From: Candidatus Gottesmanbacteria bacterium GW2011_GWC1_43_10
Lineage (GTDB): Bacteria; Patescibacteriota; Microgenomatia; UBA10105
Direction: 5' to 3'
Length of the DNA: 64,000 bases
NCBI GenBank assembly: GCA_000995415.1
Contig: LCEX01000002.1
Coordinates: 19,232-83,231, forward strand
Numbering within the stretch: the first letter of the stretch is position 1; every line of letters starts with the position of its first letter. The position numbers were made by a program, and so were the translations under genes. The notes beneath the pieces were generated by a model that did no database searches, had not been told where the DNA came from, and saw nothing but the letters and a program-made list of their open reading frames with translations. Positions 4,444-42,592 of this stretch are shown in pieces.

Positions 4444-5579
4444 ATAAATATAGAATCCATATTCTTTGCCCGCGACTTGGGATAACCGACAGAGGTGCAG
4501 AAGTATTTGTCTATGAGTTGGCTAAATATTTACAGCGCGACTTTGCAGTGACAGTTTGGGTAAGAAAAACCAAAGGTCAATCATCAATGCTTGCTGATCT
4601 AAAAAAATATGAGGTCCAGGTAAGGTATGCTACTTGTATCGACGAGTCTCACCCCATTGCCTCGACGCTCTATAAAATTCATCCCCTTAGAAAAGTCCTT
4701 GAAAAACTGCGCCTTGATCCGATGGGGATAGAAATGCTGTCGTTTAGCTTGGTTTGCTTGCCAGGATTATTCCGATCGGGTGCGGATGTCCTGTTTCCCG
4801 TAAACGGTATCTGGGGAGTTTTGGCTTGTCAAATTGTGCGTATCTTTACCGGCATCCCATTTATATATTCATCTCAAGGTGGGATTGAACCACCGGTAGC
4901 ATTTTTACAGCCAAATGTTTATATAGCAATTCACAGGTATACAAAGTCTTGGTTGCTTAAACATTTTCCAAAACTGAAAGTCGTACATATTTCAAATGGA
5001 ATTGATTTGAAACGATTTACACCCCATGGAGAAAAGATTGTATTGGATTTGCCCCAGCCAATCTTTATCACCGTCAGCGCCTTGATACCTACAAAACGCA
5101 TTGATCTGACCATCAAAGCTATGGCCAAACTAAAATCTGGAAGTTTATTGGTATTGGGAAACGGACCGCTTAAGGAGGAACTCACCCAGTTAGGTGTACG
5201 CCTATTAGGGAGTGGCCGTTTTAAAATCCTGGCCGTCCCCAATACCCAAATACCCAAGTACTATCGGAGTGCATCTGTGTTTGCTTTTGCCGCGCCTGAA
5301 GAAAAAGGCTGGGGACTCGTACATTTGGAGGCTTTAGCATGTGGATTGCCGGCAGTTGTAAACGATGAAGAAAATTTGCGGTCTTTGATTGGTAAGGCTG
5401 CATTTTATTGTGATGTTTATGATGCCAACGCGTATTCTCGGTGTCTCTTTAAAGCCAATCAGAAACATTTTAATAGTGAAGGTAGACGTATCGCCCAAAC
5501 AGTAGCGTGGGAAACTGTGGGAAAAAAATACAGCCAACTCTTATATCAAATAGCAGCCAAAAATGAAAAAAGTAACTAA
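4440..5579 (+). CDS. GT4 (group 1) glycosyltransferase
   Basis: C-terminal E-x7-E region GWGLVHLEALACGLPAVVNDEE. GTG at 4440 overlaps the upstream TGA; TTG at 4431 is an alternative start. Confidence 0.8.
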   Translation: MNKYRIHILCPRLGITDRGAEVFVYELAKYLQRDFAVTVWVRKTKGQSSMLADLKKYEVQVRYATCIDESHPIASTLYKIHPLRKVLEKLRLDPMGIEMLSFSLVCLPGLFRSGADVLFPVNGIWGVLACQIVRIFTGIPFIYSSQGGIEPPVAFLQPNVYIAIHRYTKSWLLKHFPKLKVVHISNGIDLKRFTPHGEKIVLDLPQPIFITVSALIPTKRIDLTIKAMAKLKSGSLLVLGNGPLKEELTQLGVRLLGSGRFKILAVPNTQIPKYYRSASVFAFAAPEEKGWGLVHLEALACGLPAVVNDEENLRSLIGKAAFYCDVYDANAYSRCLFKANQKHFNSEGRRIAQTVAWETVGKKYSQLLYQIAAKNEKSN

Positions 5580-7293
5580 TTCACAGATTTGCTTAGGACT
5601 CATTTTGCTTTTAGCTTTTTTAGTAAGGGTTTGGGGGGTGGGATTTGGTTTACCCGCAAAACATTTCATTGACGAAGAAGGACAAATATACGGTGCGCTT
5701 TATGCTGCATATTCTCGGCTACAACCGGTTCGATTTATGTATGCCTCGTTTGTTCCTTATTTATTGTTGGCTGAATATGGAACAGTTTTTATAATCGGAA
5801 AAATCAGCGGCATATATCTGGCACCGTTTGACTTTTTGGTGGCTTATATTCGTGATCCCAGCAACCTGTTTTTGCTCGGGAGACTGACTATGGTTGTGGC
5901 TGGGACTTTAAGTGTCTGGCTGATATGGAAAATAGGCAAGAAATTTTATTCGAAAACCAGCGGTTTGGTAGCAGCTGGATTTTTGGCGATCATTTTTCTC
6001 CATGTAAAAGAATCTCACTATGTCAAACAAGATGTAATTTCTACTTTATTTATCCTCATGAGTTTTTATTTGGCTTTACTCAGTGTAGAAACCAAGAGGT
6101 TGCAACAGTATTTATTTACCGGAGTGACTTTGGCCTTGGCAGTGAGTGCTAAATACCAAACATTACTTATAGCGCCCGTCTTGTTTATCCACTATTACCT
6201 GACGCGCAAAAAGCCGTCGCTATCCCAATCGGTTGTGCTCGGAGTAGGTTTTGTATTGACCATGCTACTCTTAAATCCTTATTTTGTTTTGGCGCCAAAA
6301 AAAGTAATAGATGGGACTTTGGCAGAGTTTGCAATTGCCAAAACCGCTTATCCAGAGTTATTGCAAGGTCATCCAGTGTGGTGGTGGTTTGTATTTCAAC
6401 ATTTACCGCAAGGGTTGGGGACGGTTTTATTCGGAGCTAGCATTTGGGGTAGTCTGGTTTGTGTAGGACGAGGAATAAAAAATAGAAAATATTTGCTGAT
6501 TCCCTTACTGCCTGTAGTTTTTTTGTTGACCGTAGATCAATGGTCCCAATTCCCGAGTGCCAGATACGCGGTCATGTTGCTACCCTTTTTAGCCCTGGCC
6601 GCGGCTATTGGCCTCGAGTTTATTTTTTCTTTTCTGCCTCGTCACAAAGCAAGATCACTTTTCATGTTTGGGGCAATCCTCTTAGTGAGTATGGAATCGG
6701 GGATACGAGATGTAAAATTTGACTATTTGCTGACGCGGCCAGATACGCGTTATTTGAGTCAACAATGGATTGAGTCGCATATTCCGCTCGGCACGAAGAT
6801 TTTGGTAGAATCGACGGTCAGGCCTGAATACGGAGCCAATGTAAATACGCCGCTGACTTTATCCACCAGTGCAAATGACAAGCGGCTTAACGAGGCTCAA
6901 TCACGGGGCGAGTCTGGTTTATATTTGCAAGCTCTCAAAAAAGCCAATTTAGGCAAAGTTGGTTATGACATCGTAGCCACAGGTCGAGTCGACGTGCTGC
7001 TTGATGTTTTTACCAGTGAAAAAACGCTTATGGAAAATGCCGATTATTACGTCAGTTCCGAAGTGGATTATTTAGTTTTATCTAGTTGGTCAGTGAAACC
7101 GGATATGAAGCCGGAATTTATGCAATCAGTTGGTCGCCATTATGATTTGATAGCAAAATTTCGGCCGACTTATGAATTTCCCGACGACCCTCATTTGGTA
7201 AAAATGGATTATGCGGTTCTTGATCGCGTCTCTTTTTGGGGAAAGCCGGTCATTTTCGGGCCGGTGATTGATATTTACAAAAAACGAACATGA
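5563..7293 (+). CDS. Polytopic membrane protein, GT-C-fold glycosyltransferase-like (ArnT/PMT-type)
   Basis: 576 aa with many TM segments. Signal-anchor LLLAFLVRVWGVGFGLP is followed by an acidic loop HFIDEEG (DE-type motif after TM1), as in lipid-linked-sugar GT-C enzymes. Confidence 0.5.
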   Translation: MKKVTNSQICLGLILLLAFLVRVWGVGFGLPAKHFIDEEGQIYGALYAAYSRLQPVRFMYASFVPYLLLAEYGTVFIIGKISGIYLAPFDFLVAYIRDPSNLFLLGRLTMVVAGTLSVWLIWKIGKKFYSKTSGLVAAGFLAIIFLHVKESHYVKQDVISTLFILMSFYLALLSVETKRLQQYLFTGVTLALAVSAKYQTLLIAPVLFIHYYLTRKKPSLSQSVVLGVGFVLTMLLLNPYFVLAPKKVIDGTLAEFAIAKTAYPELLQGHPVWWWFVFQHLPQGLGTVLFGASIWGSLVCVGRGIKNRKYLLIPLLPVVFLLTVDQWSQFPSARYAVMLLPFLALAAAIGLEFIFSFLPRHKARSLFMFGAILLVSMESGIRDVKFDYLLTRPDTRYLSQQWIESHIPLGTKILVESTVRPEYGANVNTPLTLSTSANDKRLNEAQSRGESGLYLQALKKANLGKVGYDIVATGRVDVLLDVFTSEKTLMENADYYVSSEVDYLVLSSWSVKPDMKPEFMQSVGRHYDLIAKFRPTYEFPDDPHLVKMDYAVLDRVSFWGKPVIFGPVIDIYKKRT

Positions 7294-8252
7294 AACAAAA
7301 CACGCCCCAGTACCAGAAAGCTCATGACTTCAGCAAGAGAATAAATAGCCTTTTGGGCTTTCGGTACGGGATTTCGCCTCCGGTGTCGGACGAGAAGCCG
7401 CGGACTTTAGTCCGCGGAGGCTCACTTACCGCTCATTGTTTGGTGAAAAACGAACAGAATTGGGTGTGGTTTGCTATCAATTCGGTATTGGACTTTGTAG
7501 ACAAAATTATCGTTTTTGATACCGGTTCCACGGACGACACAGTTCCCATCATCAAGACAATACGAAGTCCTAAAATCAAATTTTCACAAAAAGGCCCAGT
7601 TGATAAAAAACAACTTACCCGACTCCGGCAGGAGATGCTGGATCAAACCAAAACTTCCTGGTTTATGGTGCTAGACGGGGATGAGATTTGGCCAAGAACC
7701 ACGATTGCCGAACTGACCGCGGCTATCCGCCAAGCCAGCTCTAAACAACAGGCAATTGTTGTCGGCCAATGGATGTGGCAGGGAGACGTGTATCACTACT
7801 CGCCAGTAGTTGAAGCCTTGGTTGATCCACTCGCACCAAAGAACTTGACCGGATACAGGTTGCCGCGAGCTATCAAAATGCTGCCAGGAATTCAGACAAT
7901 CGGAGAATATGGATGGGAAAGTTACGCCGACCAAAAAAATCTCAACGTTTCCGACTGGAATAAAGAACGACTGATATACATAAAAAACAAATTTTTCCAC
8001 GCTTCATTTTTACCGCGTTCTAGTACGAGGGAAAAAGACAGAGAGGTGATGATGCGCGGCCCCAAAACCAGATTTACTAAAGGCGCGTTATTTCCCAAAA
8101 ACGTCATTTTGCCCGAAATCCTATCTGCCAAACGGCCACAGCAAGTTCCTTCTCCCTGGCAGCATCTGACCCTAAAGCAAGCAGCAGTGGGTTTTTATTA
8201 TAGAGCGCAAAATTTAGTCGAGCGATTTGGGAGGCAGGTCGGAAATTTATGA
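7290..8252 (+). CDS. GT2-like glycosyltransferase
   Basis: CLVKNEQNWV...VFDTGSTDDT...VLDGDEIW (DxD); ATGA overlap with the upstream gene. Confidence 0.6.
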   Translation: MKQNTPQYQKAHDFSKRINSLLGFRYGISPPVSDEKPRTLVRGGSLTAHCLVKNEQNWVWFAINSVLDFVDKIIVFDTGSTDDTVPIIKTIRSPKIKFSQKGPVDKKQLTRLRQEMLDQTKTSWFMVLDGDEIWPRTTIAELTAAIRQASSKQQAIVVGQWMWQGDVYHYSPVVEALVDPLAPKNLTGYRLPRAIKMLPGIQTIGEYGWESYADQKNLNVSDWNKERLIYIKNKFFHASFLPRSSTREKDREVMMRGPKTRFTKGALFPKNVILPEILSAKRPQQVPSPWQHLTLKQAAVGFYYRAQNLVERFGRQVGNL

Positions 8253-9268
8253 CGACTCTCGGACTCATCGGTTTTGGATATTGGGGGCCAAATTATGCCC
8301 GAATTCTATCTCGACTTCAAGGAGTCAGACTCAAGTGGATTTGCGACATAAACGAAGATTTGTTGAAAATCGCTCAGACCGACTTTCCCAAGATCAATGT
8401 TTCCACCAATTATCTCGAAGTTTTAAAAGATAAAACTGTGGATGCGGTGGTGATCGCCACTCCGGTAACGACCCACGCAGCACTGGTTAAATCTGCTTTA
8501 GAATACGGTAAGCATGTTCTGGTCGAAAAACCTTTGACCACCTCAAGTAAGCTTGCCGAACAACTATTTGCTACCGCATCTCGACACAAACTCCGACTCT
8601 TTGTCGGCCACACTTATTTGTTTCATCCGGCAGTGATTAAATTAAAATCACTTCTTAAAAAGCAGCTTTTGGGTAAACCGCTGTTTTTTATTTGTCAGCG
8701 GACCAATTTTGGGCCAATCAGAAAAGATGTCAATGTACTGTGGGATCTGGCTTCACACGATATTTCTACTCTATTATTCTTAACCGGAAGTGAGGTCGTT
8801 AGTATCAGCGCGAGTGGGACAAATTACATCGACCCAGATATTGCAGATTTGGCAAACATCAATTTGATTTTTGCAAATGGGACATTTGCCAGTATTCTGG
8901 TCAGTTGGTTAGCTCCGGTAAAAGTGCGGCAAGTGACAGTAGTGGGGGAACAAAAAATGGCGGTATTTGATGATACGAGCATTAGTAAATCTTTGCAAGT
9001 TGTTGATAAAGCAGCTATTACTTTTAAACCGGGACAACCTGTAGATTTTATAAATTTTAAAAAGAATTTTGCTTACGTCAGCAAAAGACAAGTTATTCGG
9101 ATGGAAAAACGTGAACCTTTGGGGATGCAAATAAAAGCATTTATTAAATCCCTCCAAAAACCGAATAGTTTTTTCGTTTCATCCCGACACGTCTGCGATG
9201 TAATTAAAGTTTTAGAAAAAGCCGATCAAGCATTGCTATCTGGTAAAACTGTTGAGATGCGGGTTTAA
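8249..9268 (+). CDS. Gfo/Idh/MocA-family NAD-dependent sugar-nucleotide oxidoreductase (WbpB-like)
   Basis: N-terminal Rossmann LGLIGFGYWGPNYARIL and EKP motif (VLVEKPLTTS). Confidence 0.85.
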   Translation: MTTLGLIGFGYWGPNYARILSRLQGVRLKWICDINEDLLKIAQTDFPKINVSTNYLEVLKDKTVDAVVIATPVTTHAALVKSALEYGKHVLVEKPLTTSSKLAEQLFATASRHKLRLFVGHTYLFHPAVIKLKSLLKKQLLGKPLFFICQRTNFGPIRKDVNVLWDLASHDISTLLFLTGSEVVSISASGTNYIDPDIADLANINLIFANGTFASILVSWLAPVKVRQVTVVGEQKMAVFDDTSISKSLQVVDKAAITFKPGQPVDFINFKKNFAYVSKRQVIRMEKREPLGMQIKAFIKSLQKPNSFFVSSRHVCDVIKVLEKADQALLSGKTVEMRV

Positions 9269-9310
9269 TCCGCCTTCGCGAAATTCCCCGATCGTAAGGT
9301 CGTGGGAGCC

Positions 9311-10723
9311 TCAATGCTTCCAAAGTTTTTCTGCAAAAGGTCTAATTTTCAACCGGTACATCCCGACGCCGCACATATATAATAATCGCAGACCATGGGA
9401 AATAGCGTGCATTTTGGATTCGCCGGTCTGCCGTTTTTTGTAATGTACCGGATACTCTTTGATCCGAAGTTGCAAATTGGCAGCGCCAAACAAAAGGTCA
9501 AAATCGCCCCAGGGTTCATTACCCAAGATTATCTTACGGGCATCTTTTTTAAACAAGGCTTTGGTACCACACAAAGTATCGGTAACTCTTTGATTTAAAA
9601 GCCAACTAAAAAATGAACTAAAAAATTTATTTCCCAATAAGTGAAAATACCGCATTGCTTGTTTTTCCATGGGGTAGACCATCCGAGTGCCGTTGACGAA
9701 ATCCGCTCTATTTTCTGCCAGCAATTCGTAAAAACAGGTGAGTTCCTGGGGAGGTACTGTCATATCAGCGTCCAAAATGAGTAGAATCTGTCCCCGAGCT
9801 CGGGCAAATCCGGCGGCCACAGCTCTAGCTTTGCCTTGATTTTTTGGAAATGTTATTAGCGTGATAGCCTTATTCTTCTTAGCAATTTTGCGCACGATTT
9901 GGTTCGTTTTATCGGTTGATCCATCATCGACGACAATAATTTCAGTTTTTTTTCCTAGACGGGGAACCTGCTTGATGCAGGGGGTTATGTTGTCAGCTTC
10001 GTTAAAGACTGGAATAATGATCGAAGTAGAATACGTCTTTGATTTTACTTTAGGTGCTTTTTTACTAACTAAATATTCGACAAAGGCCAAATGTTTCAAA
10101 GCGCCAAGTTGGGAAATATGTCTATTAACCAAATTCGATAAACCCAGGATATGTTTAGGAATCAGTGCGGCGTATCCTGACTGTTCTATGGTAAAACCAC
10201 AGATTTCAAATATGTTGATTAAGTCCGGAAGCGGTACCCAGTTGTGTGGTCCTTCCGGCATCTTCATACCGATTTTTTCAGTGAGATGTAAGACCGGTTC
10301 CCAAATAGGATTGATAGTCGAGACCACTACCTTGGTTTGTGGAGTACAGACTTGCCTGATTTGGTGTAGTGCTTGATAAATGTCTGGTAAATGATCAATC
10401 AGATCACACAGAATGACCGCGTCGTATGTTTGCCGAAGACGAAGTTGGTAAACATTTTGTTGCCAAAATGACAAATCTTGGTGTTTGGCTCGGGCCAATT
10501 TTATCATCTCGCCGCTGATATCTATTCCGTGACCAGTACGTGGAGCAACGGAAGCTAAAATGTCTCCAGTGCCACAACCGACCTCAAGTACTTTTTGGCC
10601 AGGAGAGATATGGGCAGCAAACAATTGCTTGAGTTGCAGATAATAGTACCATGACTTTTTCTTCCAGTTGTCATAGTCCTTGGCCAGCGTGTCAAAATGA
10701 TTTTTGACTGATGAAGCATCCAT
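9311..10723 (-). CDS. Fusion protein: N-terminal class I SAM-methyltransferase plus C-terminal GT2 (polyprenyl-phosphate sugar synthase / DPM1-like)
   Basis: VLEVGCGTGDI motif I in the N-terminal half. The C-terminal half has IIIPVFNEADNI...IIVVDDGSTDKT...ILDADMT and a QxxRW-like region. Confidence 0.8.
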   Translation of the reverse strand: MDASSVKNHFDTLAKDYDNWKKKSWYYYLQLKQLFAAHISPGQKVLEVGCGTGDILASVAPRTGHGIDISGEMIKLARAKHQDLSFWQQNVYQLRLRQTYDAVILCDLIDHLPDIYQALHQIRQVCTPQTKVVVSTINPIWEPVLHLTEKIGMKMPEGPHNWVPLPDLINIFEICGFTIEQSGYAALIPKHILGLSNLVNRHISQLGALKHLAFVEYLVSKKAPKVKSKTYSTSIIIPVFNEADNITPCIKQVPRLGKKTEIIVVDDGSTDKTNQIVRKIAKKNKAITLITFPKNQGKARAVAAGFARARGQILLILDADMTVPPQELTCFYELLAENRADFVNGTRMVYPMEKQAMRYFHLLGNKFFSSFFSWLLNQRVTDTLCGTKALFKKDARKIILGNEPWGDFDLLFGAANLQLRIKEYPVHYKKRQTGESKMHAISHGLRLLYMCGVGMYRLKIRPFAEKLWKH

Positions 10724-10766
10724 AATTTTTATCAGCGCGTTTTATGCTATTATACGTTACAAAAAT

Positions 10767-12758
10767 ATGCCAAAATTTTGGCACTGGTTAGTCATAATTG
10801 TCTTGTATTTTATTGTTCCGGTTTTAGAAATCAGACTGTTCATCATCTTACTAACCGTGGGTTTTGGTCTGCAAAAAACTTGGGAACTCCCAAAATGGTC
10901 AACCTATCTTTTTCTGTGGTGTATTTTTTCCTTGGGCTTCATTTTGGCACCTTATTGGCAGGTGTTTAGTTGGTGGCCGCTTAAGTACTCTTTACTATTG
11001 ATACTTGTCGGTTTAGGCAGCATATGGGCCATGATAACGGCTAAAAAAATCACTTGGAAGGGCGGGAATTTTGATATTTGGCATATTGGTTTATTGACGT
11101 TTCTGATTTATTTGACTCATTTTGGTTTGGTTGCAGCTGATATTCCTTGGCAGGGTGATGAGGAATATCATGTGAATCGATTACTCGATATCTTCTCATA
11201 CTTTGCCTTTTATGGGCAAGATTGGCACTTTTACCTATTGCGTAATCCTTTTCTTGGGATTTTATTAACCGAAGCGTTGGTTATCAGTAGCATTTTATTT
11301 TTTAAAAAAATCCGCTTGTTCCAAAAAATTTCTCGTGCCAAAAATTATTGGATAGTAGTTGCGACATTGGTATTTCCAACTTTGGCTACCACGATATTTC
11401 CATCGACAGTTTTTAGTGATCAGACTGGCATTTTTAAATTGGCTGACATTATCCGCTATCCCTACTTACAACGCTGGTGGCAGTTTGTGTTGGTCTGGCC
11501 TTTTCCAGGGAAGATTCAGCTGTATCGGGCCTTGCCGTTTTTATCGCTACTGCTTATAGCCTGGATACTCTATTTCTGGTTTGCCAAAAAACTACCACAC
11601 AAACTTTTGGCGGTCGGATATGCCTATGCATTTACAACCATCCCGCTAATGACATTTTACGGAAGTTTATTGTACTTGGAGTTGCCGATAGTATTTATCA
11701 TGTTGATTTGTTTGTTTCAAATAAAAAATATTATTAGTCAACCGTACTCGATTCTCACCAAACAGCCAGTATGGTTGTGTTTAGTTATCCTGCCTTTTTT
11801 AAAAGAGACGACCATCATGTTTTTATTACTTGTAGTTGGAGTCCGGACAATTTTTCAGCAGTTTGTACTTTCCAAAAATCTGCGCCCCAAACGTTTTTTA
11901 CTAAGCGAGTTCTTGTTTGCAGTAAGCATCTTAAGCCCAGCTATTTTATATCTATTATTTAGAAAATATTTTTCCGGATTTCGTCCTTATGGCTGGCAAT
12001 TAGTAAATATTGTGACGTTGACCAACTATCTAGTATTGGGAAAAGCACTATTTTTGCAGTTCGGATTTCTGATGATATTTGGTGCAATCGGCGTGGTTTA
12101 TCTTGTCAAAAAAGACCCGTTTGGGTTAAAGCTCCAACTTCTATTTTTAGTCGGAAGTATAATTTTTTTCTTGGGAGATGAATGGGAATTTGTAGGTTAC
12201 TCGCGCTGGAATTTATTTCTGGTTCCGGGTATATTTTACTTCGTTTACCGTTTCGTGATTTCACAAAAGAAGCCGGCGCAGATTCTTTTACTTCTGATAC
12301 TGCTTATCTCAAACTCCTATTTCAGTCCGATCTGGAGAAACAGACTGCGGAAACCAAACTGGGGTTCACCAAACACTGGTAAAGCTGAATATATATTTCC
12401 ATATGACGAGACGCTAGGGTGGTTGAGCCAGGAGAACAAAACGAAACAAATGCTTTCTACCGGTTACTTTGATGACGTGGCTTACTTTGGATTTGATTTT
12501 TACTTTCGCAAATACCAATGGTTTCCACTTCTGACACAGATTCCTTTGGCTGATACACCATATACTGCTTACGAAGAGCCGGTTTTGTTTGAACAATTAT
12601 TAGAGCATTTGCAAACGCAAAATCTGGATATTGATACGATTGTTTACCAGTCTATCTACAATATAAAGCTTGATCCAAACAAAAGATATGGGACAAAATA
12701 TACGGTAATCAAAAAGTTTTCTAACGGCTTGCACACGATCTATGTCTTAAGGTCGTGA
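10767..12758 (+). CDS. Large polytopic membrane protein, GT-C-like (DE motif)
   Basis: About 660 aa and highly hydrophobic, with DIPWQGDEEYHVNR after an early TM. The ATG at 10767 is preferred because the TTG at 10704 would overlap the divergent gene's start. TGA stop at 12756-12758. Confidence 0.5.
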   Translation: MPKFWHWLVIIVLYFIVPVLEIRLFIILLTVGFGLQKTWELPKWSTYLFLWCIFSLGFILAPYWQVFSWWPLKYSLLLILVGLGSIWAMITAKKITWKGGNFDIWHIGLLTFLIYLTHFGLVAADIPWQGDEEYHVNRLLDIFSYFAFYGQDWHFYLLRNPFLGILLTEALVISSILFFKKIRLFQKISRAKNYWIVVATLVFPTLATTIFPSTVFSDQTGIFKLADIIRYPYLQRWWQFVLVWPFPGKIQLYRALPFLSLLLIAWILYFWFAKKLPHKLLAVGYAYAFTTIPLMTFYGSLLYLELPIVFIMLICLFQIKNIISQPYSILTKQPVWLCLVILPFLKETTIMFLLLVVGVRTIFQQFVLSKNLRPKRFLLSEFLFAVSILSPAILYLLFRKYFSGFRPYGWQLVNIVTLTNYLVLGKALFLQFGFLMIFGAIGVVYLVKKDPFGLKLQLLFLVGSIIFFLGDEWEFVGYSRWNLFLVPGIFYFVYRFVISQKKPAQILLLLILLISNSYFSPIWRNRLRKPNWGSPNTGKAEYIFPYDETLGWLSQENKTKQMLSTGYFDDVAYFGFDFYFRKYQWFPLLTQIPLADTPYTAYEEPVLFEQLLEHLQTQNLDIDTIVYQSIYNIKLDPNKRYGTKYTVIKKFSNGLHTIYVLRS

Positions 12759-13868
12759 CGATTTTTTTAGCCTAAAAAACTCATGAATAGTTGCCGCAAT
12801 ATATTTGATTTCAGTCTGTTTTAATTCAGGAAACATCGGTAAGGAAAGAAGGCGCTTACTCGTTCCTTCGGCTATCGGAAAATCTCCGCGTTTATGACCT
12901 TGGGCTAAAAATGGCCGGGTGAGATGTAAGGGAACTGGATAGTGGATGCCGGTGGCGATACCACGCGAGCGCAAAAATTTCTGCAATTGGTGGCGATGGG
13001 GCGTAGTTATGGCAAAGATGTGGTAAACATGGGTAGTAAAGTCAGCAGGTTTCGGAAGTTGTAACTGAGTGAGTTGTTGCAAAAGTTCAATATAGAAAAG
13101 ACTATGTTTTTGGCGTAATCGGTTCCAATTCACGAGGTGTTTCAATTTAAAGTTGAGGATAGCCGCTTGGAGCGTGTCCAAACGGCTGTTAAACCCAAAA
13201 ACTTCATGAGTATATTTTTGACTGGCGCCGTGGTTTCGGAAACGACGGACTTTTGCTGCAATCAGAGCGTTATCAGTCACCACTATGCCGCCATCGCCAA
13301 ACCCACCCAGATTTTTGCTAGGGTAAAAACTGAAAGCGCCGGTTTCAGAGTAGGGAACCAGCTTACCTTTGTAGCGGGCGCCATGTGCTTGACAGCAGTC
13401 TTCAATGATTTTTAAGTGATATTTCTGAGCCAGTAGAAGTAGCGGATCCATGTCAGTCGGTTGGCCGAATAAGTGTATCGGGATAATAGCCCGTGTGCGG
13501 GAAGTGACTTTTTTAGCTACTTGTTGCGGATTGAGGGTGTAAGTAGCCGGATCAATATCAGCAAAAATGACTTTGGCGCCGGTGGCGTGGATGGCTTCAA
13601 CTGTAGCAAAGAAAGTGTTGGGGGCGGTGATCACTTCATCGCCACGACCGATGCCGTAGGCTATAAGTGATAAAAGTAAAGCATCGGTGCCGGAGTTGAC
13701 ACCAACCGCGTATTTTTTGCCACAAAAAGCAGCAAAGGTAGATTCAAAAACATTTACCTCACTACCGGCAATAAAATTAGCTTCTTTTACGACTCCAGCA
13801 ATTATCTTTGAATAATTGCGAAAAAGTAATTTATTTTGTCTTGCCAGATCGACGAACTCGATTTGCAT
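12747..13868 (-). CDS. DegT/DnrJ/EryC1/StrS-family PLP-dependent sugar aminotransferase (WbpE-like)
   Basis: N-terminus IEFVDLARQ, SGTDALLLSL, and the PLP-lysine region SFYPSKNLGGFGDGG. Confidence 0.9.
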   Translation of the reverse strand: MQIEFVDLARQNKLLFRNYSKIIAGVVKEANFIAGSEVNVFESTFAAFCGKKYAVGVNSGTDALLLSLIAYGIGRGDEVITAPNTFFATVEAIHATGAKVIFADIDPATYTLNPQQVAKKVTSRTRAIIPIHLFGQPTDMDPLLLLAQKYHLKIIEDCCQAHGARYKGKLVPYSETGAFSFYPSKNLGGFGDGGIVVTDNALIAAKVRRFRNHGASQKYTHEVFGFNSRLDTLQAAILNFKLKHLVNWNRLRQKHSLFYIELLQQLTQLQLPKPADFTTHVYHIFAITTPHRHQLQKFLRSRGIATGIHYPVPLHLTRPFLAQGHKRGDFPIAEGTSKRLLSLPMFPELKQTEIKYIAATIHEFFRLKKSSRP

Positions 13869-14370
13869 ATTCGACTGGAAAATTTTTTTGGTATTTTTTG
13901 TCGTTGACGCGACCTATGATCCTTGCCGGGTTTCCGGCAACTATAGCATAAGGGGCGACACTTTTTACAACCACCGCTCCCATACCAATCACCGCATGAT
14001 GGCCTAGTTTTATATCCGGACCAATGATGGCTCCGCCGCCGATAGTGACATGGTGGGCGATTCGTGCGGGTTGAGGGACATATTTATTTTGGAATATTTT
14101 GGCTGTGGTCGGATATTTATCGTTCAAAATTAGGACATGGGGTCCGATAAATACGTCATCACTAATTTCCGTCATTTCGGAAATGAAGATAAAAGACTGT
14201 AATCGGCAGCGGCGGCCGATAGTTACACCGGGTTTGACTTCGCAAAAACTGCCGACTTGAGTGTCATCGCCGATTTGCACTGGATACTTGCGAGTTCCAT
14301 AAATATTTGAGTGATGCCAGATTTTAACGTTTCCCCCGAGGTGTACAAATTTATTTCTTATGATATTCAT
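13831..14370 (-). CDS. Hexapeptide-repeat (left-handed beta-helix) sugar N-acetyltransferase (WbpD/PglD-like)
   Basis: Repeating [LIV]G-x4 hexapeptides (IGDDTQVGSFCEVKPGVTIGRRCRL...IGGGAIIGPDIKLGHHAVIGMGAVV). Confidence 0.85.
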   Translation of the reverse strand: MNIIRNKFVHLGGNVKIWHHSNIYGTRKYPVQIGDDTQVGSFCEVKPGVTIGRRCRLQSFIFISEMTEISDDVFIGPHVLILNDKYPTTAKIFQNKYVPQPARIAHHVTIGGGAIIGPDIKLGHHAVIGMGAVVVKSVAPYAIVAGNPARIIGRVNDKKYQKNFPVEYANRVRRSGKTK

Positions 14371-14392
14371 GTAAAGTATTATAATACACGAG

Positions 14393-17313: not shown

Positions 17314-17364
17314 AAGGTGAGGGAGTTTACCAACGAGGCGGATTCATAGTACTATATATAAGGC

Positions 17365-20229: not shown

Positions 20230-20232
20230 AAG

Positions 20233-20264: not shown

Positions 20265-20277
20265 AATTTTGAAGTTA

Positions 20278-23127: not shown

Positions 23128-23128
23128 A

Positions 23129-26942: not shown

Positions 26943-26996
26943 CCGTTAATAACATGATTACTATAATATTGAAAAATGTGGCACAAAGGGCCGTAA

Positions 26997-30653: not shown

Positions 30654-31414
30654 TTTTTGGTAATCACAAAATGACAGCTGGGTAGATTTTTTAATTCTGG
30701 TAAAAATTTAACAACTCGTCCATAATTAACCGGCAAAGTCCATACTCCTTTAAAAATGATTTTAAGTTGGGCTTGGATCAGTAGGTTTTCCAATCTTTTC
30801 CAGGTCAGCGGTTGTTCGATTGGCTGCTGTTGTAAACTAATGATGTGGGTGAGTAGGTTGTAAACGATTTGAATAGCGGGAAAAGAGGGCAGTTTGTGAA
30901 CTGTTAATATTTGGATTTTTGACACGCGGGCCATTTCCGATATCGCGAGTTCTGGATCGGCAAAATGTTCCAGACTACCGGCACAAATTGCTAGATCAAA
31001 AGCATCGTCAACAAATGGTAGATGCGCCGCGTCTGCCTGGACTAAAAACTTGGCGCCGCGGTTTTTACTTTTACGTAAAGCATTATAAGCAAATTCGACG
31101 CCGACTGTTTCCGAAACCCGACTCTCCAATTCGCCGTCGCCGGAAGCCACGTCGATGGTAGTGTTGCCGCGTGCAAAACAGGCTAAGACCTCATAAACCC
31201 CATCCGTCGGCACAGCGAATTTCCGGCGGTGTAACTTTTCGTAAAGTCGGCGTGAGGTTTCGGAAACAGGATGGGGATTGTAAAGCAACTTCCAGACACC
31301 TTGTTTGCAACTAAACCCAAAGTCGCAGACAGCACAGTGTTTACGAGTAAGTTTCAGTTTGGTTTTACATCTAGGGCAAGCAAGGGAATCCAGAAATTGA
31401 GTTTGCGTCAGCAT
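30650..31414 (-). CDS. SAM-methyltransferase with N-terminal Trm112-like zinc ribbon
   Basis: CPRCKTKL...CAVCDF ribbon, then IDVASGDGEL and a methyltransferase-type-11 core. Confidence 0.7.
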   Translation of the reverse strand: MLTQTQFLDSLACPRCKTKLKLTRKHCAVCDFGFSCKQGVWKLLYNPHPVSETSRRLYEKLHRRKFAVPTDGVYEVLACFARGNTTIDVASGDGELESRVSETVGVEFAYNALRKSKNRGAKFLVQADAAHLPFVDDAFDLAICAGSLEHFADPELAISEMARVSKIQILTVHKLPSFPAIQIVYNLLTHIISLQQQPIEQPLTWKRLENLLIQAQLKIIFKGVWTLPVNYGRVVKFLPELKNLPSCHFVITKK

Positions 31415-32292: not shown

Positions 32293-32307
32293 TTATCATC
32301 TATTAAG

Positions 32308-33126
32308 TTATGTCAGTTTATCATTTAATCTGATAAGTTGAAAAAAAGCAAACTCAATAAACTTGGTTATGATCAATACTGCTGCTGCCAGCGGATCAGC
32401 CAGCAACATTGGAAATTTTCTAGCCATGAGTTTCAGTCGAAACCAACCGCTTTGGTGTAAAAACTGTTGCGGATGGTATCTGGCATACACCTGAATATGT
32501 TTGGCATAATAAAATTTGTGTTTAAGCTCGCGCCAGAATGAAGTTTCGTAGTGATAAAGCGAAGTACGAGTTCGGCCAATGTTGCCGATTCGACTTACCC
32601 GTTGGGATAAATCCCAATCTTCACCCGCGACTAGATTTTCTCTAAACCCGCCGACTTTGAGAAAGACAGACTTTTTAATAAATCTGGCTGCTTCAATAAC
32701 TGGCTCGTTTAGATAAAGTTGTTTCTCGAGTTTTTTGACTCTAGTAAACCAGCCTTTTCCTTTGACAGTTTCTGGGATGATCACCGCGTCAGCGAGGTTG
32801 GTTTGAATAGCTTTAACGCAGTCAGCGATGACTGTTGATGGTAGTTCCATGTCAGCATCCAAGAGCAAAAGATGGCGACCTCGGGATTTAAGTACACCAA
32901 AATTTCTTTGTTTACTGCGTTCGCCGGAGTAAGAAAAAACCTGCACCGGAAATTTTTTGACTATTTCCAATGTGGTGTCGGTGGAATAATTGTCGACAAT
33001 AATGATCTCCAAACTGGTAAAAGTTTGCTTAAGCAAACTTTTGAGTAGACGTTGGATATTCATTGCTTCATTTTTGGTTGCAATCACGACTGACACCAGC
33101 GGAGATGAAACACTTTTCTTAACCAT
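32308..33126 (-). CDS. GT2 family glycosyltransferase (polyprenyl-phosphate sugar synthase-like)
   Basis: VSVVIATKNEAMNI...IIIVDNYSTDTT...LDADME. Confidence 0.85.
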   Translation of the reverse strand: MVKKSVSSPLVSVVIATKNEAMNIQRLLKSLLKQTFTSLEIIIVDNYSTDTTLEIVKKFPVQVFSYSGERSKQRNFGVLKSRGRHLLLLDADMELPSTVIADCVKAIQTNLADAVIIPETVKGKGWFTRVKKLEKQLYLNEPVIEAARFIKKSVFLKVGGFRENLVAGEDWDLSQRVSRIGNIGRTRTSLYHYETSFWRELKHKFYYAKHIQVYARYHPQQFLHQSGWFRLKLMARKFPMLLADPLAAAVLIITKFIEFAFFQLIRLNDKLT

Positions 33127-34138
33127 ACAATTTTCGATTTAAGTCCTTTGTCAAAAGTTGCCAGATCCCGTTAGTCTGCATATAACTGTTTTGACAAATG
33201 AGACAAGTGAGTCGGCGATTTATCTTGGTTAATTTGCTGTGACAATTTGGACATTGGAATATCCTTTTTGGTTCGGTTTTTTGAACTCCCGAATTTTTAC
33301 GAAGTAGACCACTGATACCACCGCCAAACAGAGTTAAGCTAAATTTGCTGGTAAAAGGAAGTTCCAACTTCGATTTAAACTGAGCATTGGTTAAATGCAG
33401 ATGGCGGCCTACTAAAAATGGACTAATGGTGATTGTGCCATCAACAAATTCCCGAGTCAATTTTTGCCATAAGTTTAAACTGAATGCTTCTTCAGCGATG
33501 CCATAGTCGACTTCGCTTTTGCCGATTTCGGAGATAAATGGTAAAAGTAAGGAATATTTGAGCAACTTATTCCATCCGCTGGCCTTTGTAGGTCGGCGAA
33601 ACAGCCTCAGGTTAAATGTCTGTCTTACCGGTTCTTCGCTAAAAAAGAACCAGCCACCGGGTTTTAATACGCGCCAGATCTCTTTAACCACTGGTAAGGG
33701 ATCTGGAAAATGATGTAGAGTTTGATAACAAAAAACAAAAGCAAATGTTTGGTTGGAGAATGGGAGTTCATGGGCATCGGCCACAATCCGGATGGGGAAT
33801 TTAGTAAAACCAAATTGTTTGGCGAAATGCGGCATTGCTTCCAAAGGTGCCCGGGCCAAATCCAAAGCAAAACCCCGCCCGTCAAAAGCTGTTTCCAAAA
33901 GACAGGAACGCAATCCGTATTCCGCACCTATTTCCAGATATGGCTGTAAATTTATATTCTGATTTCGCAACTTACGAAAATCAGTTCGCGTCGATTTGAT
34001 GCGCTTTTTAAGCTCCGCTAGCATTTCTGTGGGCGTATACTCCTCCCGAAAGTGTTTTTCTAGACCCAGATGTTGTTGAGTGATTAAATGACGAAAGTTG
34101 ACTTCGCCCAGTTTTTGGATCAAGGTTTGTTTGGTCAT
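33119..34138 (-). CDS. SAM-methyltransferase with C-terminal zinc ribbon
   Basis: Methyltransferase-type-11 core (RVLKPGGWFFFSE) plus C-terminal CPNCHSKL...CLICQNSY. Confidence 0.7.
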   Translation of the reverse strand: MTKQTLIQKLGEVNFRHLITQQHLGLEKHFREEYTPTEMLAELKKRIKSTRTDFRKLRNQNINLQPYLEIGAEYGLRSCLLETAFDGRGFALDLARAPLEAMPHFAKQFGFTKFPIRIVADAHELPFSNQTFAFVFCYQTLHHFPDPLPVVKEIWRVLKPGGWFFFSEEPVRQTFNLRLFRRPTKASGWNKLLKYSLLLPFISEIGKSEVDYGIAEEAFSLNLWQKLTREFVDGTITISPFLVGRHLHLTNAQFKSKLELPFTSKFSLTLFGGGISGLLRKNSGVQKTEPKRIFQCPNCHSKLTKINRRLTCLICQNSYMQTNGIWQLLTKDLNRKLYG

Positions 34139-34139
34139 A

Positions 34140-37791: not shown

Positions 37792-37878
37792 GCTGGCCTA
37801 TTCTAATCTTTTTTGTAATATTTCGCACGAGGCGTTTGTCACATTAAGCCGAAAAAATGTATATAATGCGGTTCTATT

Positions 37879-40096: not shown

Positions 40097-40121
40097 GCCC
40101 AAGATTATAGCAGAAGATTTA

Positions 40122-40916
40122 TTAGAGAGATTGCAACAGCGGTTTAAATGCCAGCGCTTTGTCTGTGTTTTCGTGAGTATAAAACTTGAGGATATTTTTA
40201 CGGTAATAAATAGCCGCAACATCCTGTAGAAAATTTTTGACCGCCCGGATATCAATCGTACTTTGGTTAGCAGGAGAATGATGAATGACTACCGGAACTT
40301 CGGTGATATCACTAAATCCCATGATTTGGGCCACTACCAATAGTTCCAAATCAGTGGCGAAACGCTTGATCACCAGTCGTGGAAAAACCTGATTGAGGAC
40401 ATTGCGCCGAAATATCTTTAAACCCACCTGGGTATCTGAAACATTTAGATGGAATAAAACTCGGATGACTACTTTTAGAATCAAGCTGTAGAAAACCCTA
40501 TTCCAGGGATAATAAATGCGCGAAGCGGGATGGTACTTGGAGGCAATCAGCATATCAGACGAATTATGCAAAAATTGCCGAAGCTTGTTGACAACTTGCC
40601 GCGGTCGGATATCCAAATCCCCGTCCAAAAAAACTACCGGGTCACCAATCGACCGGGTAAAGCCAGTCTGCAAGGCAAATCCTTTGCCGAAATTTTGCGA
40701 GTAATGCAAGATTTGTATCTTCTTTCGAACAGGGTAAGCGTTTCTGAAATTTAACGCCGATTTTAGGGAGGTGTCAGTAGAACCATCGTCGACTAAAATG
40801 ATTTCGTAATCCCGTAAACCCTGTCGAGAAAGTTCCTGTGTCAATAAAAATAGAGCCTTAGCGAGAATTTTACCTTTATTATAAACGGGAATGATAAAAG
40901 AAATCATTAATTTCAC
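40122..40916 (-). CDS. GT2, dolichyl/polyprenyl-phosphate sugar synthase-like
   Basis: MISFIIPVYNKG...IILVDDGSTDTS...LDGDLD. GTG at 40916 or ATG at 40907, possibly leaderless (see the repeat/promoter feature at 40878-40947). Confidence 0.85.
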   Translation of the reverse strand: MKLMISFIIPVYNKGKILAKALFLLTQELSRQGLRDYEIILVDDGSTDTSLKSALNFRNAYPVRKKIQILHYSQNFGKGFALQTGFTRSIGDPVVFLDGDLDIRPRQVVNKLRQFLHNSSDMLIASKYHPASRIYYPWNRVFYSLILKVVIRVLFHLNVSDTQVGLKIFRRNVLNQVFPRLVIKRFATDLELLVVAQIMGFSDITEVPVVIHHSPANQSTIDIRAVKNFLQDVAAIYYRKNILKFYTHENTDKALAFKPLLQSL

Positions 40917-40947
40917 TATGCCATTTGTGTCCCTTGGCTGTCAAGAG
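40878..40947 (-). promoter_or_regulatory. About 70-bp repeat copy 1: promoter (perfect TTGACA -35) plus the first codons of the GT2 gene
   Basis: Minus strand TTGACA, a 17-18-nt spacer, CATAGT, then an ATG about 7 nt later, which would make the mRNA leaderless. It is 65/70 identical to 42606-42675. Confidence 0.45.
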
Positions 40948-41047
40948 TAAAATGTAATTGTGCCACCGAATTTGTGCAATATTGAGTCGGTCAAATGTTG
41001 CGGATCTGAGATAGTTGGGTATAAATCTTCTTATTAACACTATCTGT

Positions 41048-42592
41048 TTATTGGCTTTGACTATCAGGAGACCTGAATGTCTGTTGGGAATTATCAAGAA
41101 CTAAAGCTTCTAGATCCAAATAAGTGCTCTTTGAAAGCTCGATGTTTACTCCCGGCCAATTGTCGGATCTATTTTTGATAACGACTACTCGTTTTGGGTC
41201 GGTGTCCTCTATAGGAGTTGGAAAAAGACTGTATGCCCGATATATCCAGTCCCAATTCCGGTAATGGTAGCTTTTGACCGCCGGACGGAAATACAATGTA
41301 TATAGCTCGGTCCAACCTCCTCCATGGATATAAGGGTCGTTTGAGGCGTACAGAGAAAATTTCTCATTACCGATAGCATCAGTAGTGTTTTTGATGAGGT
41401 TTATCTTTTGATAAAGCGGATATTTCACTTGAGAGTTAACTAGGGTATAAAGATTCACGCTAAAATAAAAAATTAACCATGCCGCCATTAACCACTTAGC
41501 TCGTTGTTCAATCCAAACTAATACCTGAGCTACCAAAACGATGAAAATCGGGTAAAATACCATAAAATAATGTTGGAAGAAGTTGCCCCTGAAGACGATA
41601 TTGTAAAAATAAAGACTGATAACAAAGGCAAACACCATGATCCACAACAATCGCATTTTCCAGACTGGGGGTTTTTTGGAAAAAAGCCAGTATAAACTTA
41701 TGCCAAGCATGATCACAACCATCAGTTGTGTTACCGGTGTAAACAGTGCAAGTGGAACATCGCAGTAACAAAAATTTTGCTCAATAAATTTGCTGGGAGC
41801 TGTAAAAAGGACCCGGGTTAACACTCCGATCACTTCTGCCGGTGGATAAAGCTTGCCGTCGGTGGGTAACATATCAGGCCTTATGGGGCGAGCCAAAGAT
41901 CGCACAATCGCTTTCGAAACTACTCCGTGATAACGCACTTCGGCCATTAAAAAAGGCATTATAAATATTCCCAGTATCACCAAACCTGCTGCTGTGTATT
42001 TATTTTTGAGTGAGACTTTAAAAAATGCTAAAGTGATCAAGATCGCTACTACCAACGCTATGAGTGATGCGTCTTCGTGAAAGGCAAAGCCAATTGGGAA
42101 AGCCAAAAGCGGAAGAAATCGATAGTCCTTTTTGATCACTTTCATCAAACTCCACAATGTCAACGCCGACAAAACCGGATTTAAGGTCAGATGCACCAAG
42201 CGGCGGTCGAATAATGAAATAAAGAATGAAGTTGCATACAAAAAACTTGCCACCAAACCAAGTTTTTTGTCTCCGATCTCGGATCCGGCTTTATAAACCA
42301 AAAAAGTGGTGATCACTCCTAAGACTGAAGCAATTGTTTGAAGATTTACCAAGTCAAACTTGGTCAAGTAATAGAAAGGGGTCAAAAAATAGTGATAAAA
42401 AGGTCCTAGCCCAAACCCCAAACTGGCATTTTGTACTAAAAGTGTGGGTGAACGATCCCAAATGATATGTCGAATGGTAGCAGTGAGCACTTCTTCATCC
42501 CCACTCCAATACTGAAAATCGTAAAAGTTATAAAAACGGAAAAATATTGCCAGTGCAATAATAAAAACTAGAAGTCGATGCTTAATGGCCAA
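41048..42592 (-). CDS. GT-C glycosyltransferase-like polytopic membrane protein
   Basis: 514 aa and hydrophobic, with first-loop YWSGDEEVLTATIRH (DE motif). TTG start, with GGGAGGA immediately upstream. Confidence 0.6.
   Translation of the reverse strand: MAIKHRLLVFIIALAIFFRFYNFYDFQYWSGDEEVLTATIRHIIWDRSPTLLVQNASLGFGLGPFYHYFLTPFYYLTKFDLVNLQTIASVLGVITTFLVYKAGSEIGDKKLGLVASFLYATSFFISLFDRRLVHLTLNPVLSALTLWSLMKVIKKDYRFLPLLAFPIGFAFHEDASLIALVVAILITLAFFKVSLKNKYTAAGLVILGIFIMPFLMAEVRYHGVVSKAIVRSLARPIRPDMLPTDGKLYPPAEVIGVLTRVLFTAPSKFIEQNFCYCDVPLALFTPVTQLMVVIMLGISLYWLFSKKPPVWKMRLLWIMVFAFVISLYFYNIVFRGNFFQHYFMVFYPIFIVLVAQVLVWIEQRAKWLMAAWLIFYFSVNLYTLVNSQVKYPLYQKINLIKNTTDAIGNEKFSLYASNDPYIHGGGWTELYTLYFRPAVKSYHYRNWDWIYRAYSLFPTPIEDTDPKRVVVIKNRSDNWPGVNIELSKSTYLDLEALVLDNSQQTFRSPDSQSQ

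Follow-up and report, generated by a model that had tools for sequence, protein, structure and literature searches.

The closest described systems are the three- and multi-component transmembrane glycosylation systems, namely GtrA-GtrB-Gtr* in Shigella and Salmonella, CsbB-GtcA-YfhO and GtlA-GtcA-GtlB in Firmicutes, and GacI/J-GacK-GacL in S. pyogenes. B. subtilis has three GT2/GT-C pairs, and soluble GT-A enzymes that act together with a distinct membrane protein also exist (GacI/GacJ; PMC8035078). Within GT-C enzymes, a DxD, DD or DE motif shortly after TM1, i.e., in the first extracytoplasmic loop, is a general trait (PMC6801728).

We studied a window of 64,000 nt (the whole stretch of DNA analysed) from Candidatus Gottesmanbacteria GW2011_GWC1_43_10 (contig LCEX01000002.1, positions 19,232-83,231; GCA_000995415.1), an uncultured groundwater bacterium (CPR/Microgenomates). 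Its interval 5563-42592 holds seven GT-C-fold genes and two clear lipid-sugar synthase-like GT2s (ORFs 9311 and 40122; Table 1, where each ORF is named by its first position). We read this interval, with a probability of roughly 0.7, as the core of a cell-surface glycan locus of ~47 kb with several parallel multi-component transmembrane glycosylation systems. The reading is based on family and fold membership, on conserved motifs that the positive-inside rule places outside, and on gene pairs that recur in other genomes.

As in the described systems, a synthase-like GT2 (GT-A) gene stands beside a multi-span GT-C whose acidic motif follows TM1, the locus includes a MOP/Wzx-type flippase candidate, and there are several pairs per genome. 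In contrast to them, the locus is without GtrA-type flippase, GT2 membrane anchors or visible GacJ-like partner, one of its GT2s is fused to a methyltransferase, seven GT-C genes face two clear synthase-like GT2s, and the host is a CPR bacterium.

Table 1. Features of the glycan locus, given as window positions
Feature	Position	Strand	Evidence and remarks
Wzx/MOP-type flippase candidate	707..2176	+	PF13440 Polysacc_synt_3 4.7e-50; sole flippase-like gene of the locus
GT2, 280 aa	2822..3664	+	PF00535; PDB relatives are generic GT2s
GT-C, PMT_2/ArnT-like, 576 aa	5563..7293	+	PF13231 56.0 bits, PF02366 29.5 bits; D37-E38-E39 (nt 5671-5679) right after TM1
GT2, 320 aa, not ArnC/DPMS-like	7290..8252	+	PF00535 4.6e-10; conserved downstream neighbour of 5563-type GT-C
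GFO/IDH/MocA sugar oxidoreductase, amino-sugar pathway	8249..9268	+	PF01408, PF22725
SAM methyltransferase (N-terminal) and GT2 (C-terminal) fusion, 470 aa, no TM helix	9311..10723	-	PF00535 6e-37 and methyltransferase domains
GT-C-fold membrane protein, 663 aa	10767..12758	+	W128-x-G130-D131-E132 (nt 11148-11165) after 4-5 helices
DegT-type sugar aminotransferase	12747..13868	-	PF01041 3.5e-109; beside ORF 10767
Hexapeptide acyltransferase	13831..14370	-	PF00132; beside ORF 10767
GT-C-fold protein, 954 aa	17365..20229	+	Tandem paralog of 20269; Asp in GVDFY after TM1; weak PF10131 match
GT-C-fold protein, 952 aa	20269..23127	+	N-terminal multi-TM domain, ~500-aa outer domain, C-terminal TM
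GT-C, PMT_2-like, 470 aa	29241..30653	-	PF13231 40.3 bits; D39-E40 (nt 30534-30539) after TM1
Generic GT2, 272 aa	32308..33126	-	Best PDB matches heparosan/chondroitin synthases, TarS-like enzymes
GT-C-fold paralog (third), 909 aa	34140..36869	-	GGDYY after TM1; aligned with 20269 family
GT2, 264 aa, no TM helix	40122..40916	-	PDB: PfDPMS 4.7e-14 (aa 3-229), GtrB 1.3e-12, ArnC 2e-10
GT-C, PMT_2-like, 514 aa	41048..42592	-	PF13231 41.7 bits; D32-E33-E34 (nt 42491-42499) after TM1
Ser/Thr-rich membrane protein, 1054 aa	44859..48023		Just downstream of the interval

The GT-C proteins fall into three kinds: 5563, 29241 and 41048 are PMT_2/ArnT-like, 10767 represents a family that the searched libraries do not model, and 17365, 20269 and 34140 are ~950-aa PF10131-related paralogs. 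A preliminary description of the locus had counted four, which is an undercount because the ~950-aa proteins lie inside the same coordinates. It had also called four such enzymes in one locus unusual; there are seven here, and three PMT_2 genes within 13.5 kb are routine in related Microgenomates-type loci.

For the first kind, the Pfam PMT and PMT_2 models stood in for GT39/GT83 assignment. Given gathering cutoffs of 26.1 bits (PF13231, PMT_2) and 22.7 bits (PF02366, PMT), all three proteins score above the former and ORF 5563 also above the latter. The four acidic motif strings first reported are all present in the translations (HFIDEEG, aa 34-40 of ORF 5563; WQGDEEYH, aa 128-135 of ORF 10767; FWFDEAFTY, aa 36-44 of ORF 29241; YWSGDEEV, aa 28-35 of ORF 41048). 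In ORFs 5563, 29241 and 41048 the motif stands directly C-terminal to TM1, after a short K/R-bearing N-terminal tail, which agrees with the proposed first extracytoplasmic loop. The extracytoplasmic prediction for the four motifs comes from the positive-inside rule alone; the result of a crude hydropathy predictor was ambiguous. Their D-E(E) core had been taken for an ArnT/PMT signature but is the general GT-C feature (PMC6801728). The one homolog of ORF 5563 (in locus L019, 43% identical) has GDEG at this place, three 29241-like proteins (L005, L013, L014) have LWLDE after TM1, and for ORF 41048 all 23 homologs keep D32 and E34, which remain at least 90% conserved across 34 sequences.

The match of ORF 5563 to the PMT model would also fit a rather improbable alternative, namely that some or all PMT_2-type enzymes are protein O-glycosyltransferases, which transfer a lipid-phosphate sugar to Ser/Thr of secreted or surface proteins, e.g., the product of ORF 44859. 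Ser and Thr make up 24% of that protein (30-40% over aa 75-650) compared to 12.6% on average, and a single PMT-type glycosyltransferase reportedly accounts for protein glycosylation in Caldicellulosiruptor bescii (PMC6151902). However, compared to the PMTs (GT39; yeast Pmt1/2/4, actinobacterial Pmt), the locus proteins match PMT_2 better than PMT, and PMT_2 also includes ArnT and glycosyltransferases for teichoic acids, e.g., Listeria GtlB (PMC8035078). Furthermore, none of the proteins 5563, 10767, 29241 and 41048 contains a domain of the MIR family (Pfam, E<=0.01), which PMTs carry in their large luminal loop, and polysaccharide-type genes dominate the locus (Wzx, six GT4 modules, sugar-modifying enzymes). 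Protein O-glycosylation, likened to that by actinobacterial and fungal PMTs, would alter the acceptor and not the mechanism.

ORF 10767 has no GT-C HMM match in Pfam or NCBIfam, and 51 homologs have no PMT_2/PMT match in Pfam either. The HMM check upheld three of the four initially proposed GT-Cs, while the fourth is a GT-C by its modelled fold. The rule suggested earlier, to discard proteins without GT-C HMM match, would reject ORF 10767, yet its predicted structure is that of a GT-C. Here, the motif is outside the first loop because extra N-terminal helices precede it (4-5 in ORF 10767; about 3 TM segments in homologs), though it is still placed on the outer side. The GDE begins a loop helix following H104-122 that is predicted outside, and the loops on either side (AKKITWKGG preceding; K-IRLF-QKISR-AK beyond the next TM) give the same orientation. 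In 52 homologs, neither G130 nor D131 varies, and conservation is at least 90% for W128 and E132.

The ~950-aa proteins are full-length paralogs (17365 vs. 20269, 32% identity; 34140 vs. 20269, BLASTP 8.6e-73). Several members of the 20269 family match PF10131, which belongs to the GT-C clan of Pfam (PMC7801869). In the family alignment (34 sequences, including 17365 and 34140), G43 and D45 are invariant; the ~950-aa proteins keep a single invariant Asp, within GVDFY or GGDYY. The AF2 model of ORF 20269 (pLDDT 88) finds STT3, AglB, PglB, AftD, AftA and DPY19 as top Foldseek matches, all with prob 1.00.

The oligosaccharyltransferases STT3, AglB and PglB are the best of these matches and are also several top fold matches of ORF 10767. 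This favours a further alternative, which we consider unlikely: the three ~950-aa GT-Cs, possibly also ORF 10767, would transfer or polymerise lipid-diphosphate oligosaccharides en bloc (as oligosaccharyltransferase, ligase or polymerase-like enzymes) instead of using lipid-phospho-monosaccharides. Such an activity would account for the smaller number of synthase-like GT2s compared to GT-Cs, given that just two DPMS-like GT2s are found at the locus. It would also fit the Wzx-type flippase, a typical mover of lipid-PP-linked repeat units, and the many cytoplasmic GT4 and GT2 enzymes that could build an oligosaccharide. Unlike in oligosaccharyltransferases, where it lies in the C-terminal outer domain, no WWDYG-type motif is present (W[WY]D[YW]G is absent from the translations of 17365, 20269, 34140 and 10767), profile searches gave no match to oligosaccharyltransferase sequences in the PDB, and TM-scores are just 0.3-0.5.

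Acidic dipeptides are short and common, and ORF 10767 is without glycosyltransferase HMM match, such that the D-E motifs might be chance occurrences within generic membrane proteins that are no glycosyltransferases. However, same-composition samples would have a D[DE] at most 25 residues past the preceding helix in only 1.6-6% of cases per protein (jointly ~1e-6), all sequences in the alignments of 10767, 41048 and the 950-aa proteins share the Asp, the few homologs seen for 29241 and 5563 keep it as well, and HMM or fold support exists for 7/7 proteins. We consider a chance origin extremely improbable; the conservation and fold data already contradict it.

With regard to the GT2s, three (9311, 32308, 40122) had been described as polyprenyl-phosphate sugar synthase-like. 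All three have a GT2 domain, while the synthase-like character holds for 9311 and 40122, which their sequences mark as the clearest candidates. The GT2 half of ORF 9311 has ArnC as its top PDB match (1e-16, aa 233-448), followed by PfDPMS and GtrB, with the whole catalytic domain covered; E. coli ArnC itself matches with 5e-20. R-x-x-G-E-S-K, a motif common to ArnC and PfDPMS in PDB alignments, is aligned in ORF 9311 (KRQTGESKM, aa 434), replaced by GKSK and GTTN in its L019 and L016 orthologs, and absent from ORFs 40122 and 32308. The best NCBIfam matches of ORF 40122 (PgfS, ArnC, PpgS) are all under cutoff, and no NCBIfam equivalog cutoff (ArnC, PgfS, PpgS, AglJ, Dol-P-hexose transferase) is reached (best 94 bits vs. 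325 for AglJ, 72 vs. 500 for PgfS). GtrB and ArnC have two C-terminal TM helices and PfDPMS has four; ORF 9311 shows no hydrophobic segment, and ORF 40122 only weak ones inside its catalytic domain. Since soluble GacI-type GT-As are known, the missing anchor makes family membership less likely without affecting the mechanism.

ORF 32308 was rejected as a synthase given its heparosan/chondroitin/TarS-like relatives and no match with E. coli ArnC; its PDB match to DPMS is only 3e-6 over the N-terminal part, and its best NCBIfam match (TIGR04283) is under cutoff. The GT2s 7290, with only weak PDB matches to SunS, and 2822 are possible further candidates. With two clear synthase-like GT2s for seven GT-Cs, several GT-Cs are without an identified donor synthase here.

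The view that GT2s and GT-Cs form functional pairs is supported by gene neighbourhoods in other genomes. Homologs of 9311 adjoin those of 10767 in L015, L016 and L019, as in the window, while in L002, L017 and L018 the flanks of the 10767 homologs contain no 9311 homolog. In L007 and L012, a 41048 homolog has a 40122-like GT2 next to it. L019 repeats the 5563-7290 order of GT-C then GT2 (7290-like GT2, 4e-101), and L012 has a 7290-like GT2 (2e-43) beside a PMT_2 gene. Thus, linkage is conserved for 9311-10767, 40122-41048 and 7290-5563, in small samples. The pairing first proposed is borne out by these linkages, but the conserved partner of ORF 5563 is a GT2 that had not been listed. In addition, 2822-like GT2s stand directly beside 29241-like and 41048-like GT-C genes in L005 and L014 (2e-57, 1e-60). 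Overall, the earlier observation is partly confirmed and its interpretation partly supported.

The aminotransferase, acetyltransferase and oxidoreductase adjoining ORF 10767 point to a sugar of the amino or acetamido type; in L019, a DegT homolog also adjoins the 10767 and 9311 homologs. No intergenic gap of the locus is large enough for a GtrA-type ORF, and there is no room for a small GacJ-like membrane partner. Among the locus ORFs scanned, there is neither a priming phosphoglycosyltransferase nor a Wzy/ligase. The Wzx/MOP protein may act as dedicated flippase or may instead flip a lipid-PP repeat unit.

Other known systems were compared with the locus. For ArnC-ArnT (Und-P L-Ara4FN synthase and lipid A Ara4N transferase; PDB 9hwj, 5f15), no window ORF is significantly similar to E. 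coli ArnT, and ORF 9311 lacks the two TM helices of ArnC while having an extra methyltransferase domain. To our knowledge, lipid A is not expected in a CPR bacterium. In the mycobacterial wall systems (PpgS and Rv3779; EmbA/B/C and AftA-D with decaprenyl-phosphate sugars), several clustered GT-Cs likewise act outside the membrane, where they assemble or decorate a wall polysaccharide. The folds of 20269 and 10767 match AftD, AftA and AftB, the 950-aa proteins carry extracellular domains like the large mycobacterial GT-Cs, and PpgS is among the NCBIfam matches of 9311 and 40122. In contrast, identity is 8-12%, all matches are under family cutoffs, and no DPPR synthase or DprE genes were seen.

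The type of system at the locus is already well known; the 10767 family is absent from the model libraries searched. For the multi-component glycosylation systems that we favour, we infer lipid carrier, sugars, flippase and acceptors as follows. In the cytoplasm, GT2s (most clearly 9311 and 40122, possibly 7290 and 2822) would move a sugar from a nucleotide sugar to polyprenyl phosphate. A flippase, perhaps the Wzx/MOP protein, perhaps another, would next carry the lipid-linked sugar across the membrane. Outside, the GT-Cs would pass it to a surface glycan or protein via the conserved Asp that starts the loop helix after the core TM1.

All four D-E motif strings named in the preliminary description are found in the translations of ORFs 5563, 10767, 29241 and 41048 (ORFs are named by start coordinate). 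Its placement of the motif in the first extracytoplasmic loop holds for 5563, 29241 and 41048, where a short K/R-containing N-terminal tail and TM1 are directly followed by the motif, but not for 10767, where further helices precede. The same split is seen for the GT-C HMMs. That is, the three former ORFs match Pfam PMT_2 (56, 40 and 42 bits, respectively; cutoff 26.1), with 5563 also above the Pfam PMT cutoff, while 10767 matches no Pfam or NCBIfam model and its homologs none from Pfam. Based on composition-matched samples, the chance of a D[DE] dipeptide at most 25 residues past the preceding helix is 1.6-6% per protein. In GT-C enzymes, a loop helix outside the membrane begins with an acidic motif (PMC6801728). 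Among 23 homologs of 41048, D32 and E34 are invariant; the motif reads L-W-L-D-E in three 29241-like proteins and G-D-E-G in a 5563 homolog of 43% identity. Single-sequence phmmer searches of the three PMT_2-type ORFs against PDB sequences gave nothing meaningful, and E. coli ArnT, compared pairwise with every window ORF by phmmer, matched none significantly; the ArnT sequence was used only for reading its own DE motif.

The 10767 family is undescribed in Pfam and NCBIfam. An exhaustive profile search yields 392 representatives (E<=1e-3) on contigs of 37-63% G+C, and its alignment profile (A3) has no relatives among PDB sequences. Since such searches also gave nothing for the ~950-aa proteins discussed below, fold comparison was needed for both families; AF2 models compared by Foldseek gave a GT-C fold for 10767 and 20269. 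G130 and D131 are invariant among 52 homologs of 10767. Because four or five helices precede the motif in the window protein (about three TM segments in homologs), it lies beyond the first loop. Our home-made predictor, based on hydropathy and the positive-inside rule, did not orient proteins consistently; for 10767, sidedness was instead assessed from AF2-derived helices and the K/R count of the flanking loops. The loop preceding helix H104-122 (AKKITWKGGNFD) contains three Lys and the loop past the next TM is K/R-rich, which by the positive-inside rule places W-Q-G-D-E-E on the outer side, where a loop helix begins. Judging from this placement, its Asp may correspond to the GT-C catalytic Asp.

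The earlier count of four GT-C enzymes is too low: it missed 17365, 20269 and 34140, mutual paralogs of ~950 aa, such that the interval holds seven GT-C-fold genes. Microgenomates commonly encode this family, some members of which match PF10131, which is part of the Pfam GT-C clan (PMC7801869). For 20269, the best Foldseek matches of the AF2 model (pLDDT 88) are STT3, AglB, PglB, AftD, AftA and DPY19 (prob 1.00 each), and neither G43 nor D45 ('WGVDFYY', right after TM1) varies among 34 sequences. In a less likely rival reading, these large GT-Cs could take lipid-PP-oligosaccharide donors. A WWDYG-type motif is absent from the ~950-aa proteins, and the family profile (A2) against PDB sequences gave nothing meaningful and no oligosaccharyltransferase (OST) match; OST identity is therefore rejected and the proteins are classed by their GT-C fold. 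Respective hhalign probabilities against A5, a GT-C alignment with GDEE, are 18% for A3 and 9% for A2; the latter sets GVDF opposite GDEE, which is not evidence. The family's C-terminus comprises a TM helix and a conserved W-W-x-K-E-[DE]-E tail, and its outer domain also gives Foldseek matches to GH42-type and STM1381-like domains. Several pairs of listed homologs are on contigs of equal length, so that members probably often occur as tandem paralogs.

Three GT2s (9311, 32308, 40122) had been proposed as lipid-phosphate sugar synthase-like. For 9311 and 40122, relatives of ArnC, DPMS and GtrB, this stands. The C-terminal half of 9311, a SAM methyltransferase-GT2 fusion, is nearest to ArnC (1e-16, whole catalytic domain, R-x-x-GESK aligned), then PfDPMS and GtrB, and an E. 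coli ArnC query finds 9311 at 5e-20. ORF 40122, without the GESK motif, is nearest to PfDPMS (4.7e-14), then GtrB and ArnC. Best NCBIfam matches (PgfS, ArnC, PpgS for 40122, AglJ for 9311) agree with this but are all far under their cutoffs. Neither protein has TM helices; there are known soluble GT-A synthases that partner with a separate membrane protein (PMC8035078). By its relatives, 32308 is a generic GT2: heparosan and chondroitin synthases and TarS-like enzymes match best, and E. coli ArnC does not match. We dropped it as a lipid-sugar synthase because the GT2 following a 29241-like GT-C in one related locus (L005) is a close homolog of 2822 (2e-57) and not of 32308. ORF 2822 is likewise a generic GT2, and 7290 resembles only SunS, weakly. 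A metagenome scan with 40122 gave matches of just 27-29% identity and was left out of the analysis.

Next, we consider gene neighbourhoods in related loci. Within 9 kb, L019 contains homologs of 5563 (5e-163), 7290 (4e-101), 10767 (5e-99), the DegT gene (3e-45) and 9311 (6e-66), as well as a formyltransferase and epimerases. A 10767 homolog is directly followed by a 9311 homolog in L015, and in L016 a 493-aa methyltransferase-GT2 fusion (5e-104) is 3 kb from the 10767 homolog; the 10767 contexts of L002, L017 and L018 have no 9311-like neighbour within the flanks. Homologs of 41048 adjoin 40122/9311-like GT2s in L007 and L012, and GT-C genes adjoin 2822-like GT2s in L005 and L014. Four such enzymes in one locus had been called unusual, but L012, L013 and L014 each bear three PMT_2-type genes within 13.5 kb, i.e., multi-GT-C loci are normal in the lineage. 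The A5 profile search for related loci returned 5 genome loci only. The Gottesmanbacteria GT-C has homologs of 45% identity in MAGs labelled 'uncultured Gammaproteobacteria' (L004, L005, L006, L008), whose gene content is Microgenomates-like (G+C 36% in L005) and whose label looks doubtful.

Pfam scans of the window (G+C ~41%) reveal a very large glycan locus, with tight gene packing from 707 to ~48000, in Candidatus Gottesmanbacteria, which belongs to CPR/Microgenomates. Its further features and surroundings are listed in the table.

Features of the glycan locus and its surroundings (window coordinates)
Feature	Position	Basis	Details
Wzx-type flippase	707	Pfam scan	
GT2 domains (6)	2822, 7290, 9311, 31408, 32308, 40122	Pfam scan	
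GT4 genes (5; six modules)	4431, 23129 (double GT4), 28105, 37879, 38996	Pfam scan	
Double GT4	23129-25486		one 785-aa ORF, head-to-tail fusion of two modules
SAM methyltransferases (at least 7)	glycan locus	Pfam scan	
Methyltransferase	30650-31414		N-terminal zinc-ribbon-like CxxC...CxxC
Methyltransferase	33119-34138		C-terminal zinc-ribbon-like CxxC...CxxC
DegT aminotransferase, hexapeptide acyltransferase, GFO oxidoreductase	glycan locus	Pfam scan	
RmlD-like reductase, two carbamoyltransferases	glycan locus	Pfam scan	
Carbamoyltransferase paralog	26997-28244		N-terminal domain only (415 aa)
Carbamoyltransferase paralog	43054-44775		full length (N + C domains)
Two genes downstream of amino-sugar genes	14393-17313		ORFs 14393 (456 aa), 15760 (517 aa)
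Candidate surface glycoprotein	44859-48023		1054 aa
AAA_14/DUF4143 ATPase	48091-49512		
AEP-TOTE primase fused to SF2 helicase	49489-51705		PF22548, 5e-67
Protein without family	51750-52472		240 aa
tRNA-Tyr(GTA)	54429-54514	Rfam/ARAGORN	minus strand
tRNA-Thr(TGT)	59045-59117	Rfam/ARAGORN	minus strand

The CxxC...CxxC segments of the two methyltransferases resemble each other (BLASTP 7e-4). ORF 14393 has no Pfam match; 15760 combines five N-terminal TM helices with a weak domain of the sulfatase/alkaline-phosphatase type, resembling LtaS or EptA in architecture. Directly past the glycan locus, the primase-helicase and its two neighbours (48091-52472) resemble a small defence or conflict island. 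The two tRNAs are the sole Rfam/ARAGORN matches in the window.

For this locus we observe to which folds or families the proteins belong, the conservation of their motifs, their predicted sidedness and the synteny; donors, acceptors and flipping are what we infer. The data are best read as several multi-component transmembrane glycosylation systems (PMC8035078, PMC11127046). A cytoplasmic GT2 would put a sugar on polyprenyl phosphate, a flippase would carry the lipid-linked sugar over the membrane, and GT-C enzymes would pass it on at the outer side. The Wzx/MOP protein 707 is the sole flippase candidate, and no GtrA-type ORF fits the gaps between genes. An amino sugar is suggested for the 9311-10767 pair: an aminotransferase, an acyltransferase and an oxidoreductase are encoded next to 10767, and L019 has arn-like content. 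Two carbamoyltransferases and at least seven methyltransferases suggest that the sugars are heavily O-methylated or carbamoylated. In a less likely rival reading, the acceptor would be a protein modified by O-glycosylation, with the Ser/Thr-rich protein at 44859 as candidate acceptor. This candidate surface glycoprotein has 24% Ser+Thr overall and 30-40% over aa 75-650 (average 12.6%), an N-terminal TM segment, C-terminal TM segments and a CarboxypepD_reg-like domain.

Beyond these glycosylation systems, a more specific reading is rather unlikely, at roughly one chance in four. Here, 10767 would represent a new GT-C family with extra N-terminal TM helices and an invariant W-x-G-D-E, whose conserved pairing with an anchor-less methyltransferase-GT2 fusion delivers a modified sugar (amino, methylated or both) to the outer side of the membrane. 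With the three PMT_2-type and three ~950-aa GT-Cs, it would make up an extracytoplasmic assembly line, which uses lipid-phosphate sugars to build a large part of the surface glycan and does not just decorate it, much like mycobacterial arabinan synthesis.

GT-A/GT-C pairs, several pairs per genome and newly founded GT-C families are already established, GT136 being an example of the latter (PMC11127046). For general glycobiology, the locus thus extends a well-known theme and adds no new principle. Of most interest in it is the 10767 family, so far undescribed, with its conserved methyltransferase-GT2 partner, a gene pair directly testable in vitro; along with the ~950-aa PF10131-related family, two families without a characterised member are flagged. 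A literature search on CPR, Microgenomates or Gottesmanbacteria together with GT-C or oligosaccharyltransferase found no relevant earlier description.

CPR/Patescibacteria are uncultured and ultra-small, and many are thought to be attached to other cells; to our knowledge, their envelope chemistry is almost unknown. Here, ~47 kb of the window are devoted to surface glycans, and seven GT-C-fold enzymes (three per 13.5 kb in relatives) point to a heavy reliance of Microgenomates on extracytoplasmic, lipid-carrier-dependent glycosylation. If the assembly-line reading is true, a minimal-genome CPR bacterium would make much of its surface glycan outside the membrane from lipid-phosphate sugars.
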